DNA of 5,538 nt, taken from the sequence record LT960607. One strand, given 5' to 3'. Numbering within the stretch: position 1 is the first letter of the stretch; the number at the start of each line of letters is the position of its first letter. The translations under genes and the position numbers were made by a program. The notes beneath the pieces are model-generated. The model had not been told where the DNA came from. It did no database searches and worked only from the letters and a program-made list of their open reading frames with translations. Shown here one piece after another: positions 1 to 5,538 of this stretch. The DNA is from Escherichia phage SECphi17.

Positions 1-1377
1 GATACATTCACCCTGGACGATATCATTTCCGGTAAACCAATCCCTGAAACTGCCCCTGATGAATTTCGCCTCTCCGATGAAATCGGTGAGGACTATCGTC
101 TTACCGTCCTTAAAATTGTCGATGAATTGCAAGAATGTTACGACGTGCTCGGACAACTTGATATTAATAACACTATAGACCACACCACTAAAGGTAACGT
201 CCACTGGAGTATGCTTTATGATAAACCTGTTAACACACATTGGTCACAGCTCGTATCTAAACGACCCCTTAAAGATATCCGCGCCGATTACAACTATGCA
301 AAGGCGAAGGGTATCAAGGATGAATGCTCAAAAATGCTTGAGGAGTCCACTATGAAATCACGACGTGGCTTTACCGTTCAAAGATTGATGAATGCCATGC
401 GCCAGGCCCACACTGATGGCTGGTATGTTGTATTCGACACTCTTACTCTGGCTGATGACCGCATACAGGCTTTCTATGATAATCCCAATGCTCTTCGTGA
501 CTACTTCCGTGATATTGGTCGTATGGTGCTTGCTGCCGAGGGTCGCTCTGCTAATGACTCACACGCCGACTGCTATCAGTATTTTTGTGTTCCAGAGTAT
601 GGCACACAGCACGGTCGTCTACATTTCCATGCAGTGCATCTTATGCGCACACTTCCTTTGGGTTCTTGTGACCCTAACTTCGGTAAGCTGGTACGCACTA
701 ATCGCCAAATAAACTCCTTGCAAAATACATGGCCCTATGGCTATTCTATGCCCATTGCAGTCCGGTACTCCCAAGACGCATTCTCGCGCGCTGGCTGGCT
801 CTGGCCTGTCGACTCAAAGGGTGAACCCCTTAAAGCTACCTCGTATCAGGCTGTCGGTTTCTACGTCGCTAAATACGTTAATAAAAAATCTGATATTGAT
901 CTGGCTGCAAAAGGCCTAGGGAATAAAGAATGGAACGCATCACTCAAGACCAAAATATCTCTACTACCAACCAAACTTTTCAGAATCCGGATGTCCCGCA
1001 ACTTCGGGATGAAGATGTTATCAATGGCGCACCTGACCGCCGAAACATTAATCCAACTGACCCAGCTGGGTTACGACTCGACCCCGTTCAACAACGTCTT
1101 GAGACAGAACGCCAAGAAAGAGCTGAAATCGAGGCTGGCAAAAACATCTGTCGCGACCGTTTTGGCGGCGCAACCTGTAACGACCAATCTGCTAAAATTT
1201 ATGCGCGATTTGACCCGAACAATCGGAGCGTCCAACCTGCAGAATTTTATCGCTTCAATGACGCAGAAATTAACACTCATGGATATTTCTGATGAAACCA
1301 AAAACTACCTTGCTGCTGCAGGAATTACTACATCTTGCTTACGAATTAAATCGAAGTGGACTGCTGGCGGAAAATGA
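1..1377 (+). CDS. A: Replication initiator protein A (rolling-circle HUH endonuclease), 3' portion; 5' end is at 5226 across the circular junction. Full gene is 1635 nt (544 aa).
   Basis: Frame 1 is open from base 1 to TGA at 1375-1377. Translation matches recalled phiX174 protein A over most of its length (e.g. [54 protein letters not shown]). HUH-type motif HFHAVH at 622-639; paired catalytic tyrosines in [10 protein letters not shown] (Tyr codons 862-864 and 874-876). The TTG at 127 in the ORF track is only the first start-like codon, not the real start. Confidence 0.95.
154..183 (+). other. Viral (+)-strand origin of rolling-circle replication: the 30-nt protein A recognition and nicking sequence, inside gene A.
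   Basis: CAACTTGATATTAATAACACTATAGACCAC at 154-183 is identical to the conserved 30-nt origin of phiX174-type phages as I recall it. The expected nick is between G160 and A161. Confidence 0.85.
352..1377 (+). CDS. A*: A* protein, from an internal in-frame start of gene A (341 aa).
   Basis: In-frame ATG at 352-354 (MKSRRGF...) preceded by GAGGAG at 340-345. Position and sequence match the recalled phiX174 A* start. Cannot be proven from sequence alone. Confidence 0.6.
718..747 (+). promoter_or_regulatory. Candidate sigma70 promoter pB inside gene A: -35 TTGCAA (718-723), -10 TATTCT (742-747), 18-nt spacer.
   Basis: Sequence match to -35/-10 consensus. It is positionally homologous to the recalled phiX174 pB region (TTGCAAAATACGTGGCC...), about 190 nt upstream of B. 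Not experimentally supported here. Confidence 0.35.
930..1292 (+). CDS. B: Internal scaffolding protein B (120 aa), encoded in an alternate frame entirely within gene A.
   Basis: ATG at 930-932, TGA at 1290-1292. C-terminal half closely matches recalled phiX174 B (EIEAGK..., [32 protein letters not shown]); N-terminal half is divergent. Confidence 0.9.
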
Positions 1378-1456
1378 AGAAATTCAATCTTGCATTAAAG
1401 AACTCGAGAGGGTCTTACTTCACAACCTTTCGCCATCAGCTCGCAATAGTCGCTAA
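1292..1456 (+). CDS. K: Protein K (54 aa), overlapping the end of A and the start of C in a third frame.
   Basis: ATG at 1292-1294 overlaps the B stop (TGATG). Hand translation gives [54 protein letters not shown], stop TAA at 1454-1456. Similar to recalled phiX174 K (..[13 protein letters not shown]...). Too short for the supplied ORF track. Confidence 0.8.
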
Positions 1457-1634
1457 GACTGATGCTCTTGATGAAGAAAAATGGCTCAATATGCTGGGCA
1501 CTCTTCTTAAGGACTGGTTCCGTTACGAAGAACATTTCGTACATGGCAAACAATCTTTAGTTAACATATTAATCGAGCGGGGGTTAATATCCCCCACACA
1601 AACAACCCGTAACAATAAAGGAAATACCAAATGA
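1374..1634 (+). CDS. C: Protein C (86 aa), DNA maturation / ssDNA synthesis switch.
   Basis: ATG at 1374-1376 overlaps the A stop TGA at 1375-1377 (ATGA). Protein [23 protein letters not shown]...[27 protein letters not shown] matches recalled phiX174 C. The track's GTG at 1356 is an upstream in-frame extension I reject. Confidence 0.9.
1561..1590 (+). promoter_or_regulatory. Candidate sigma70 promoter pD inside gene C: -35 TTAACA (1561-1566), -10 TAATAT (1585-1590), 18-nt spacer.
   Basis: Consensus-like hexamers at the position homologous to recalled phiX174 pD (GTTGACATTTTAAAAGAGCGTGGATTACTAT), upstream of D. Confidence 0.4.
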
Positions 1635-2086
1635 ACTCCAACGAATCTGCTGTAGCCTTTCAAACTGCAATTGCTTCTATCAAAATGATTCAAGCCTCAT
1701 CCGTCCTCGACCTCACCGAGGATGACTTCGAATTCTTAACTGGTGACCGTGTCTGGATTGCTACCGACCGTTCTCGCGCTCGCCGTGCTGTGGAGGCCTG
1801 CGTTTATGGCACACTGGACTTTGTCGGGTATCCTCGCTTTCCTGCTCCTGTTGAGTTTATTTCTGCTGTTATCGCTTACTACGTTCATCCGGTCAACATC
1901 CAGACCGCTTGCCTCATCATGGAAGGAGCCGAGTTTACTGAAAACATCGTCAATGGCGTTGAATCCCCAGTTAAGGCTTCCGAACTCTTCGCTTTCGTTC
2001 TCCGTGTCCGCGCTGGCTGTAAAGACGTCCTCGAAGGTGCCGAAGACAACATCCGCGCTAAACTCCGTGCACAAGGAATCATGTAA
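1631..2086 (+). CDS. D: External scaffolding protein D (151 aa).
   Basis: ATG at 1631-1633 overlaps the C stop (ATGA at 1631-1634). Very high similarity to recalled phiX174 D (VWIATDRSRARR.VEACVYGTLDFVGYPRFPAPVEF, VIAYYVHPVNIQTACLIMEGAEFTENI.NGVE). Confidence 0.95.
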   Translation: MNSNESAVAFQTAIASIKMIQASSVLDLTEDDFEFLTGDRVWIATDRSRARRAVEACVYGTLDFVGYPRFPAPVEFISAVIAYYVHPVNIQTACLIMEGAEFTENIVNGVESPVKASELFAFVLRVRAGCKDVLEGAEDNIRAKLRAQGIM

Positions 2087-2093
2087 TGGCTAA
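1806..2093 (+). CDS. E: Lysis protein E homolog (95 aa), encoded in an alternate frame inside D and running 7 nt past the D stop into J. Atypical transmembrane segment (see findings).
   Basis: ATG at 1806-1808 with GGAGG at 1792-1796. Product MAHWTLSGILAFLLLLSLFLLLSLTTFIRSTSRPLASSWK aligns without gaps to recalled phiX174 E (MVRWTLWDTLAFLLLLSLLLPSLLIMFIPSTFKRPVSSWK). Stop TAA at 2091-2093. Confidence 0.75.
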   Translation: MAHWTLSGILAFLLLLSLFLLLSLTTFIRSTSRPLASSWKEPSLLKTSSMALNPQLRLPNSSLSFSVSALAVKTSSKVPKTTSALNSVHKESCNG

Positions 2094-3496: not shown

Positions 3497-3507
3497 AGCC
3501 TATAACG

Positions 3508-3545
3508 TGACAGGGGGAAAAATTTTAATTTTTCGCCCCCTGTCA
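3508..3545 (+). other. F-G intergenic hairpin: 10-bp perfect stem (TGACAGGGGG / CCCCCTGTCA) enclosing an AT-rich loop AAAAATTTTAATTTTTCG. Candidate complementary-strand priming site and/or terminator TF.
   Basis: Inverted repeat 3508-3517 / 3536-3545 read directly from the sequence. The loop is nearly identical to the recalled phiX174 F-G loop (TAAAAATTTTAATTTTTG). Confidence 0.5.
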
Positions 3546-3595
3546 GGTTGAACAAGCGCAAGCGCGTTAGCTGCCTAACTATAAGGACTACTCAA

Positions 3596-5225: not shown

Positions 5226-5538
5226 ATGTCTGTAGAACTCATCAAACCACTTGTAGAAGCTGCTGGCATGTCCACGCTTACACAATCTCCAAACCTCCGC
5301 ATCTGGAAACAAGTAAACACTCGCGTAAAATTACTTGAAGAAATCCTTACTTATTACACAAACGGAATCCGTCGCTGCCCTGACACTCAGGACTTCTACA
5401 TGAATCCAAATTCACAACTTGCAACCACTATTGCCTATCGTGCTCATCAAAAGGGACACAATCCAAAATTCAAACAATACCCTGATACATTCACCCTGGA
5501 CGATATCATTTCCGGTAAACCAATCCCTGAAACTGCCC
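5226..5538 (+). CDS. A: Replication initiator protein A, 5' portion (runs to window end; continues in frame at 1..1377 of the circular genome).
   Basis: ATG at 5226 is the first start after an in-frame TAA at 5208-5210. GGAGG at 5214-5218 sits 7 nt upstream. The frame stays open to the window end, and 5484-5538 is identical to 1-55, joining frame 1 of the A body. Confidence 0.85.
   Translation, partial: MSVELIKPLVEAAGMSTLTQSPNLRIWKQVNTRVKLLEEILTYYTNGIRRCPDTQDFYMNPNSQLATTIAYRAHQKGHNPKFKQYPDTFTLDDIISGKPIPETA
5484..5538. repeat. 55-nt terminal direct repeat identical to bases 1-55: overlap from linearising a circular genome, not a biological repeat.
   Basis: Exact identity of 5484-5538 with 1-55, read directly. 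Gene A reads through the junction in frame. Confidence 0.9.

Follow-up and report, generated by a model that had tools for sequence, protein, structure and literature searches.

Stop/start gene junctions of the phiX174 type in the genome of Escherichia phage SECphi17 and their conservation among the Bullavirinae

Results

Genome and gene layout

The window, i.e. the whole stretch of 5,538 nt that was analysed, consists of a complete circular genome of 5483 nt followed by a 55-nt wrap, so that the terminal repeat 1-55 is found again at 5484-5538. An independent Logan assembly of run ERR2231584 was 100% identical to the window over 5464 nt, and an assembly artefact was ruled out on this basis. 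The nucleotide identity of the window was 93.3-94.1% to phage MG1 and to the Lille phages (Lilleput, Lilledu, Lilleto, Lilleen and lillemer), 79-81% across 60-80% of the genome to G4, ID2 and ID52, and about 73-75%, over part of the genome only, to phiX174. Gene G was very divergent from the G of the G4 group. On these sequence comparisons, the genome is that of a G4-like microvirus of the Bullavirinae, belonging to the SECphi17/'Lille' clade, and not that of phiX174. The close relatives are recorded at NCBI as unclassified within the Bullavirinae or the Microviridae. Olsen et al. described the Lille phages as 92.6-94.5% similar to SECphi17 and placed the clade in the gequatroviruses on synteny, despite an overall similarity of 59-68%.

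All genes lie on the same strand in the canonical order A(A*)-B-K-C-D(E)-J-F-G-H, B being contained in A and E in D (Table 1), and the window is collinear with the annotated genomes of ID2, G4 and phiX174. Pfam matches were obtained for six genes in the window itself (A, B, K, C, D, J), and identical relatives provided those of F, G and H. Both markers of the Bullavirinae were found: D matched the gpD profile with the score given in Table 1, and the G proteins of the clade matched PF02306 (Phage_G). The external scaffolding protein D and the major spike protein G are not found in gokushoviruses. The D protein is identical to that of Lilleput, Lilleen and MG1. Inside gene A, the 30-nt sequence CAACTTGATATTAATAACACTATAGACCAC at positions 154-183 was invariant in 15/15 aligned G4-like genomes; from established knowledge of phiX174 and G4, we take it to be the viral-strand origin. 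The ATG of A* and its Shine-Dalgarno sequence were likewise kept in 15/15 G4-like genomes, A* being homologous to the one annotated in ID2 and G4, and the start of B was conserved together with its Shine-Dalgarno site.

Table 1. Genes, stop/start junctions and promoter-like site in the window
Feature	Position	Strand	Details
Gene A, 544 aa	5226..5483 + 1..1377	+	stop TGA 1375-1377
A*, 341 aa, in-frame internal start within A	352..1377	+	ATG with GAGGA Shine-Dalgarno, -8.8 kcal/mol
Gene B, internal scaffolding protein, 120 aa, within A in a different frame	930..1292	+	PF02304, 146 bits; stop TGA 1290-1292
B stop/K start, TGATG, 1-nt overlap	1290..1294	+	K ATG 1292-1294
Gene K, 54 aa, spans A end and C start in third frame	1292..1456	+	PF12283, 62 bits (cutoff 25)
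A stop/C start, ATGA, 4-nt overlap	1374..1377	+	C ATG 1374-1376; A TGA 1375-1377
Gene C, 86 aa	1374..1634	+	PF12025, 132 bits; exact protein present in NCBI
Promoter-like site inside C, TTAACA-18-TAATAT	1561..1590	+	consensus scan; homologous to phiX174 pD position
C stop/D start, ATGA	1631..1634	+	C TGA 1632-1634; D ATG 1631-1633
Gene D, external scaffolding protein, 151 aa	1631..2086	+	PF02925, 272 bits
Gene E, lysis protein, 95 aa, nested in D, 8 nt into J	1806..2093	+	ORF, ATG, GGAGG Shine-Dalgarno, -9.3 kcal/mol
D stop/J start, TAATG	2084..2088	+	D TAA 2084-2086; J ATG 2086-2088
Gene J, DNA-binding protein, 28 aa	2086..2172	+	PF04726, 36 bits (cutoff 30)

Four stop/start junctions and the bases read in three frames

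A preliminary description of this DNA, made from the letters alone, had listed four junctions at which a stop codon and a start codon share bases, and had proposed to check them by inspection of the frame translations. The sequence, the list of open reading frames and a per-base codon table were all in agreement, and the four junctions were found base by base where they had been placed. The same description held that bases 1374-1377 are coding in three frames. These bases are indeed read in three frames because K is overprinted across the A/C boundary, which its codons 28-29 (AAT GAA) cross in the third frame. However, only base 1374 is a sense or start position in all of them, 1375-1377 being the stop codon of A. 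Two further three-frame bases had not been mentioned. Base 1292 belongs to A codon 517 (GAT, second base), to the B stop and to the K start, and base 2086 belongs to the D stop, to E codon 94 (AAT, second base) and to the J start. The 8-nt overlap by which E ends inside J had been overlooked as well.

This layout had been presented as well known, and rightly so: the same four overlaps are present in the phiX174 annotation, and the start/stop overlaps B-K, A-C, C-D and D-J of phiX174 were described by Wright et al. 2020 (bioRxiv 10.1101/2020.06.10.143693). Annotated homologues of these junctions exist in phiX174, ID2 and G4. The junction architecture is thus textbook knowledge, correct but ordinary.

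As the junction motifs are short words, their occurrence was counted on the + strand of the window, which has 30 copies of ATGA, 13 of TGATG and 5 of TAATG. The frequency of the first two, together with a 55-nt terminal duplication such as assembled circles typically carry, would suit the view that the junctions are coincidental words or arose by misassembly where the circle was closed. Against this, each of the four motifs coincides exactly with a boundary between Pfam-supported genes and is conserved among relatives, and the junctions are far from the wrap point in a sequence that was recovered identically by the independent assembly. We give this view practically no credence, and consider it refuted by the gene-boundary positions and the conservation in relatives. 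In the sequence comparison, it is not the words themselves that go beyond chance, but their placement where conserved genes meet and their retention in relatives.

Gene K across the A/C boundary

The three-frame reading of the A/C junction depends on K. The protein matched positions 1-53 of the 56 positions of the PF12283 profile, which places it in the Protein K family, and was 55% identical to phiX174 K and 71% to G4 K. The reading frame was open from the same start in 38/38 genomes, including those of the alpha3 group, with lengths of 53-62 codons. Furthermore, substitutions at the third positions of A codons, which are second positions of K codons, were suppressed where the two genes overlap: 6/26 of these positions were variable in the A/K overlap vs 255/395 in the part coding for A only (Fisher p=4e-5), and their diversity was about 5 times lower (pi 0.046 in the overlap, 0.243 elsewhere in A). 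On the protein side, all 11 phiX174 proteins, K included, were detected by mass spectrometry (PMC8125068).

One could nevertheless suppose that K is not functional here, its 54-codon frame being a frozen accident kept open by the constraint on A and C, so that the stretch would really be read in two frames. Such a reading would account for the variation in the K/C overlap, which tracks the codon periodicity of C and not that of K, and for the fact that no public collection has a gene call for this exact K sequence; it would also agree with the 2026 phiX174 mutational-scan preprint, where K was non-essential and nonsense and missense K variants were tolerated without fitness cost. The frame and start kept in every genome, a Pfam score well above the cutoff, the suppression in A and the detection of the phiX174 protein make it highly improbable. 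On the pattern of substitution and conservation, K is judged to be a true gene that is under selection and overprinted where A and C meet.

Conservation of the junctions among relatives

The four junctions are not equally conserved. At B/K, TGATG was invariant in 38/38 Bullavirinae sequences compared. The A/C overlap was kept in all sequences outside the alpha3 group, which has a 26-nt gap, and ATGA was found there in all G4-like and phiX-like genomes but MG1, in which it reads GTGA with a GTG start for C. At C/D, ATGA was kept in the clade of the window, PJNS002, ID2 and phiX174; elsewhere a 1-nt spacer (G4 clade), a 14-nt overlap (ID18) or a gap of at least 26 nt (alpha3 group) was observed. 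At D/J, most relatives have a distance of -1; the other values were +5 (Lilleen, WA3), -8 (ID18), +42 (G4 reference) and +1 (alpha3). Thus, among the sequences aligned, B/K and A/C are far more conserved than C/D and D/J, which viable relatives freely replace by spacers.

Compared with phiX174 (Sinsheimervirus), the window has the same motifs and overlaps (TGATG -1, ATGA -4, ATGA -4 and TAATG -1), the same passage of K through the A/C junction (three-frame site nt 133-136 in phiX174), B in A, E in D and an A* with an internal start. The two differ in the length of K (56 aa in phiX174, 54 aa in the window) and at the end of E, which in phiX174 lies 5 nt before the D stop, whereas the 95-aa E of the window ends 8 nt inside J; base 2086 is therefore an extra three-frame base relative to phiX174. 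The G4 group (Gequatrovirus: G4, ID2/talmos, ID18, ID52) shares with the window the size class (5.48-5.58 kb), the gene order and the B/K and A/C junctions. All four junctions are identical in ID2. In the G4 clade, by contrast, C/D has the 1-nt spacer and E overlaps J by 32 nt, the D/J spacer of the G4 reference carries a duplicated junction, and ID18 departs by -14 at C/D and -8 at D/J. Within the SECphi17/Lille coliphages the junction set of the window is common to the clade, including the 8-nt E/J overlap and a leucine at residue 21 of E; the exceptions are the GTGA of MG1 and, in Lilleen, a 6-nt insertion parting D and J.

Initiation signals at the junctions

The preliminary description had termed this arrangement a translational-coupling architecture. 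The geometry of coupled pairs was found: the genes are co-directional with stop/start overlaps of 1 or 4 nt, and, going by the transcription map of phiX174, they would share a single transcript. The calculated pairing with the anti-Shine-Dalgarno sequence was -3.1 kcal/mol for K and -4.8 kcal/mol for C, whereas all other starts lay between -5.4 and -9.5 kcal/mol. D and J have AAGGA Shine-Dalgarno sites, each located inside the upstream gene. The term fits D and J poorly, given the spacer variants and the AAGGA sites of their own. From these sequence features, coupling would be plausible for K and C only and unlikely to dominate for D and J.

A scan of the window for promoters and terminators gave totals that were not above chance (12 promoters vs 7.8 +/- 2.6 expected). 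Only the site inside C was retained, because it aligned with phiX174 pD; in this alignment the TTGACA and TAnTAT hexamers were conserved from phiX174 to G4. In the phiX174 mutational-scan preprint, synonymous changes were detrimental at C V63, D64 and L71-S75, which fall in pD, and at C I82 and G83, which belong to the ribosome-binding site of D. By analogy, we infer that the site inside C serves as the D promoter in this phage, which would yield D-J mRNAs without the C start.

RNA structure that could mask a start was also considered. The B/K region folded better than shuffled sequences (hairpin 1264-1291, z=-2.0; 8/200 shuffles equal or better). A role of this hairpin in masking the K start was rejected, as it was weak or absent in G4-clade genomes and showed no covariation. 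The A/C, C/D and D/J regions had no more structure than shuffles when tested for start-masking.

Lysis gene E

E has the features of a microvirus lysis protein of the E family (MraY inhibitors): it is small, has an N-terminal transmembrane domain, lies in the +1 frame of D and is homologous to the E of phiX174 and ID21. An ungapped phmmer match was obtained to PDB 8G01_B (E=1.8e-10) and 8G02_B (E=1.4e-8), while the Pfam model of the E C-terminus scored 21.1 bits, below the cutoff of 25. In place of the ancestral E stop, the window has TCA at 2079-2081, owing to an ATC at codon 150 of D.

It had been suggested that the junctions constrain how changes in E are to be interpreted. This did not hold: the changes lie in the D/E overlap, off the junctions, and 6/7 are synonymous in D. 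As the junctions fix only six bases and the E changes are elsewhere, the architecture neither explains nor forbids them.

Residue 21 of E is leucine (CTG, 1866-1868), where phiX174 E has Pro21, and no proline is present in residues 1-33, as in 12 clade genomes and PJNS002. Pro29 has likewise been lost in the SECphi17/Lille/PJNS002 lineage. According to PMC11126076, citing Witte 1997, P21A abolishes lysis. Pro21 is reported as required for lysis in the E of phiX174 and ID52. Nothing relevant was found in the literature on natural E proteins lacking Pro21, which is not mentioned in the phiX174 mutational-scan preprint.

The third positions of D codons were variable at 4/34 sites over E codons 2-35 and at 28/57 sites in D outside E. 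From this pattern, the proline-free transmembrane domain of E is concluded to be under purifying selection in the clade. The possibility that E is a pseudogene in the clade was rejected, the frame being intact in 13 genomes and D-synonymous variation being suppressed in the D/E overlap. We see about an even chance that E of this lineage was remodelled by almost exclusively D-silent changes and that it blocks MraY, or lyses otherwise, without the Pro21 kink, possibly independently of SlyD. If true, E with Leu21 bears on how this 'protein antibiotic' engages MraY.

Discussion

The data are probably best described by a canonical G4-like genome with junctions homologous to those of phiX174 and a real K, in which K and C could be translated by reinitiation and D and J mainly by independent initiation. 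In the proposed mechanism, a ribosome translating a polycistronic mRNA would, on reaching the stop codon of B or that of A/A*, already sit on the start of K or C and could reinitiate there. This termination-reinitiation would be expected to matter most for K and C, with the weakest Shine-Dalgarno pairing of their own in the genome. D and J would mostly be initiated independently, the upstream coding sequence doubling as a ribosome-binding site. Their Shine-Dalgarno sites in the upstream genes, together with the putative D promoter in C, suggest that the overlaps at C/D and D/J are mainly a compact arrangement.

The transcription map of phiX174 sets a limit on reinitiation at C, since the A frame is untranslated on transcripts from the B promoter. 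Reinitiation from A to C would thus be possible only on pA transcripts.

The closest experimental parallel comes from E. coli, in which gene pairs of the ATGA and TGATG types are linked through termination-reinitiation (Huber et al. 2019, PMC6728339). The E. coli pairs resemble the phage junctions in overlap geometry (-4, -1), co-directional genes, one mRNA and the E. coli host. Unlike them, the phage D would have its own promoter as well as its own Shine-Dalgarno site, and the levels required of the phage partners differ greatly, D being needed far above C.

An alternative is that the overlaps are historical by-products of overprinting and genome economy, that all genes, K and C included, are initiated independently by 30S subunits, and that the shared bases are not regulatory. 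A fully decompressed phiX174, with all overlaps removed, is viable, and viable relatives carry C/D or D/J spacers of +1, +5, +26 and +42 nt; clear Shine-Dalgarno sites precede D, J and E, and one of the five ATGA pairs tested in E. coli was initiated de novo despite a weak Shine-Dalgarno site (PMC6728339). Yet K and C have the poorest pairing and their homologues are made in phiX174 infection (PMC8125068), four of the five native E. coli pairs with 4-nt overlaps were coupled (PMC6728339), and conservation is concentrated at B/K and, outside alpha3, at A/C. Decompression also lowered fitness, and protein C fell about 6-fold when the A/C junction was removed and the sequence upstream of C changed. 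This drop is not specific evidence for coupling, because decompression altered many things at once. In addition, the invariance of B/K is also explained by triple coding constraint alone, and no microvirus experiment showing that translation of K or C depends on upstream translation was found in the literature. On balance, compaction as the whole explanation appears rather unlikely, and we favour reinitiation at K and C beside mainly independent initiation at D and J.

In the GenBank records of the Lille phages and MG1, none of B, K, E, J and A* is annotated, and the MG1 record also lacks C. For E, B and J of this phage, as for K, public collections have no gene call of the exact sequence. The practical value of the present analysis is thus the annotation of genes omitted from the public records of the closest relatives. 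The junctions themselves add no new biology; they confirm that the overlap set of the phiX174/ID2 type is kept in this genome. The comparison among relatives does sharpen the label of translational coupling, as strong conservation was seen at B/K and A/C only.

Genome form and relatives

Bases 1-55 of the window are repeated exactly at 5484-5538 (terminal redundancy, 55 nt); the window is therefore a 5483-nt circular genome with a 55-nt wrap, the wrap point being spanned by gene A. When compared by megablast with 50,697 phage records, it gave full-length matches of 93.3-94.1% identity with Escherichia phages MG1, lillemer, Lilleput, Lilledu, Lilleto and Lilleen. Salmonella phage PJNS002 (83%), ID2, ID18, G4 and relatives (about 79-81% across 60-80% of the genome) and phiX174-like genomes (about 73-75%, partial matches only) were more distant. 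On these identities, the genome belongs to the G4-like Bullavirinae and is not phiX174, so that the preliminary description had used the wrong reference phage.

The five "Lille" phages have been reported to be 92.6-94.5% similar to Escherichia phage SECphi17, LT960607 (Olsen et al., PMC7552041). An independent Logan assembly of run ERR2231584 (comparison loci L039/L044) matched the window at 100% identity along 5464 nt. The exact C, F, G and H proteins were found together on an NCBI contig, and the exact K, E, B and J sequences were absent from a 15-billion-protein collection. For the six nearest relatives, GenBank annotation is limited to 5-7 genes per record; none of the six lists B, K, E, J or A*, and the MG1 record also lacks C. 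In the Lilleen record (L011), the F and G calls overlap by >100 nt.

A 30-nt segment inside gene A (CAACTTGATATTAATAACACTATAGACCAC, 154-183), invariant in 15/15 aligned G4-like genomes, is presumably the viral-strand origin, from what is established for phiX174 and G4. In the F-G intergenic region, an imperfect inverted repeat (3504-3549; 19 bp, 84% complementary, 8-nt loop) lies where relatives have the F terminator and the complementary-strand origin.

Gene junctions and three-frame bases

The B/K, A/C, C/D and D/J junctions listed in the preliminary description were all confirmed, coordinates included, by the sequence, the ORF list and a per-base codon table.

Coordinates and Pfam assignments of the overlapping genes and their junctions
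Feature	Position	Strand	Details
A	5226 through wrap to 1377	+	stop TGA 1375-1377
A / A*			Pfam PF05840, 154 bits
B	930-1292	+	stop TGA 1290-1292; Pfam PF02304, 146 bits
B/K junction (TGATG)	1290-1294	+	K ATG 1292-1294
K			Pfam PF12283, 62 bits (cutoff 25)
A/C junction (ATGA)	1374-1377	+	C ATG 1374-1376
K codons across A/C junction	1373-1375; 1376-1378	+	N28 (AAT); E29 (GAA)
C			Pfam PF12025, 132 bits
C/D junction		+	C stop 1632-1634; D ATG 1631-1633
D			Pfam PF02925, 272 bits
E	1806-2093	+	95 aa; ends 8 nt inside J
D/J junction		+	D stop TAA 2084-2086; J ATG 2086-2088
J			Pfam PF04726, 36 bits

Bases 1374-1377 had been described as coding in all three + frames. They are indeed read in A, K and C, but in the codon table 1374 alone belongs to a sense or start codon in every frame, 1375-1377 being the stop codon in the A frame. 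The genome total of three-frame bases is six, not four (1292, 1374-1377 and 2086). Base 1292, previously overlooked, is the A shared by stop and start in TGATG; it belongs to the B stop, to the K start and, in second position, to A codon D517. At 2086, the J start shares a base with the D stop and with E codon N94. A further 813 bases are read in two frames; non-coding sequence amounts to 203 bases (3.7%).

All four junctions are explicitly listed for phiX174 (Wright et al., bioRxiv 10.1101/2020.06.10.143693) and are evident in its RefSeq annotation, nt 133-136 being the homologue of the three-frame site 1374-1377. The junction finding is already known, and there is nothing new in it. The differences from phiX174, all specific to the window lineage, are the length of K (54 aa versus 56), the 8-nt E/J overlap and the extra three-frame base 2086.

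Conservation of the junctions

The junctions had been called preserved, which holds relative to phiX174 and ID2. When 38 sequences were compared (the window, 16 GenBank genomes, 17 IMG/VR genomes, some duplicating reference genomes, and 4 metagenomic contigs), only B/K and A/C were strongly conserved. As the motif words are common on the + strand (ATGA 30, TGATG 13, TAATG 5), the signal lies in position and conservation, not in the words themselves. With shared bases counted as negative and spacers as positive, B/K was -1 (TGATG) in 38/38 sequences, alpha3 group included, and A/C was -4 in all G4-like and phiX-like genomes, with a 26-nt gap in the alpha3 group. The window clade shares its C/D value of -4 with PJNS002, ID2 and phiX174; the G4 clade has +1, ID18 has -14 and the alpha3 group at least +26. 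D/J was -1 in most sequences; Lilleen and WA3 had +5, ID18 had -8, the G4 reference +42 and most of the alpha3 group +1.

At A/C, MG1 carries GTGA, hence its unannotated C starts with GTG. This A-to-G change at 1374 is silent in A, gives N28S in K and turns the C start from ATG into GTG; it is an example of a tolerated substitution at a triple-read base.

Lilleen (L011) and WA3 (L013), phages of different clades, share at D/J an identical 6-nt insertion (TAAATATTATG), aligned to window 2086, by which the 1-nt overlap becomes a 5-nt spacer; it may reflect a parallel event or recombination. In the G4 reference (L017, IMG/VR 638275985; approximately locus 1924-2015), the 42-nt D/J spacer lies between two junction-motif copies (AAGGTGTCATGTAA ... 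AAGGAGTTATGTAATG). It is a natural "decompression" by duplication and is absent from other G4-clade isolates.

Constraint on K and conservation of the A* start

Gene K was shown to be under constraint. Its ORF was open, with an unchanged start, in 38/38 genomes (53-62 codons), and the amino-acid sequence of its first half was well conserved. Among 15 aligned G4-like genomes, 255/395 third positions of A were variable where A is read alone versus 6/26 in the A/K overlap (Fisher p=4e-5), and diversity in this overlap was minimal at K second positions and maximal at K third positions. In the K/C overlap, the periodicity was dominated by C. The A* start (ATG 352, with GAGGAG upstream) was kept in 15/15 G4-like genomes. 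In cells infected by phiX174, 11/11 proteins, K and A* included, were detected by mass spectrometry (PMC8125068); phiX174 K is dispensable, nonsense variants being tolerated (bioRxiv 10.64898/2026.07.25.740675).

Translation at the junctions

The geometry and homology of the junctions were shown, and they are those of the classic microvirus architecture, rightly recognized from the start and well known. The translational coupling attributed to it is an unproven mechanism, which probably concerns some junctions only.

Pairing with the 16S rRNA 3' end was predicted for the 18 nt upstream of each start. The two weakest values were those of K (-3.1 kcal/mol) and C (-4.8 kcal/mol), all other starts ranging from -5.4 to -9.5 kcal/mol, with a median of -1.6 for all + strand ATGs. 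Among native E. coli ATGA pairs, 4/5 were strictly coupled through termination-reinitiation (Huber et al., PMC6728339). In decompressed phiX174, which lacks the A/C junction and has a rewritten sequence upstream of C, protein C was reduced about 6-fold, B was down and A* up; this phage was viable with reduced fitness. Reinitiation at B-to-K and A/A*-to-C is plausible in view of the weak K and C pairing, the E. coli pairs and the decompressed phage: we infer that ribosomes ending at the B stop may reinitiate at the K start, and those ending at the A/A* stop at the C start.

For D and J, the evidence points in the opposite direction, against coupling. Each has an AAGGA Shine-Dalgarno site inside the upstream gene, and the C/D and D/J overlaps are swapped for spacers in viable relatives. 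In phiX174, D is required in far larger amounts than C, which argues against stoichiometric coupling at C/D. A promoter-like site inside C (TTAACA-18-TAATAT, 1561-1590) is aligned with pD, the phiX174 promoter of gene D, and phiX174 is harmed by synonymous changes in the pD hexamers and in the ribosome-binding site that D has within C (bioRxiv 10.64898/2026.07.25.740675). No conserved RNA structure masking the start was found at any of the four junctions.

In the pD-like promoter, the -10 hexamer (TAATAT, 1585-1590) lies within a GGGGG/CCCCC hairpin (1579-1595); this hairpin is clade-specific, present in the window clade and PJNS002 and absent in G4, ID2 and phiX174.

Gene E

The 8-nt E/J overlap had been overlooked. 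E ends within D, a few bases short of the D end, in phiX174, ID2, ID18 and PJNS002. This ancestral stop (TGA or TAA) is aligned to 2079-2081, where the window has TCA; it was lost because D codon 150 is ATC (Ile) instead of GTG or GTA (Val). E therefore runs on to TAA 2091-2093, and its end inside J makes 2086 a three-frame base. In the G4 clade, E extends 32 nt into J, independently, via a D-synonymous GTT codon.

A 49-nt block (1845-1893), nearly invariant from phiX174 to alpha3, carries seven substitutions in the window clade and PJNS002. The D overlap did not prevent these changes, and any constraint on them does not come from the junction architecture; 6/7 are synonymous in D, and all seven alter E (L19F, P21L, S22L, L24S, I25T, M26T, P29R). 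E codon 21 is CTG (1866-1868), residues 1-33 are proline-free, and this variant transmembrane domain is common to 12 clade genomes and PJNS002. In an ungapped alignment with the E chains of the MraY-E-SlyD structures 8G01 and 8G02, Leu stands opposite Pro21. Both phiX174 E (Witte 1997, as cited in PMC11126076) and ID52 E (PMC11126076) lose their lytic function with the P21A change.

Among the 12 clade genomes, 28/57 third positions of D were variable where E does not overlap it, versus 19/92 in the D/E overlap (Fisher p=5e-4) and 4/34 at E codons 2-35 (p=3e-4, likewise against D-only). By these counts, E in the window clade is still constrained, and its variant transmembrane domain is under purifying selection. 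The clade phages are plaque-forming isolates (Olsen et al., PMC7552041), and an E without Pro21 merits separate experimental follow-up.
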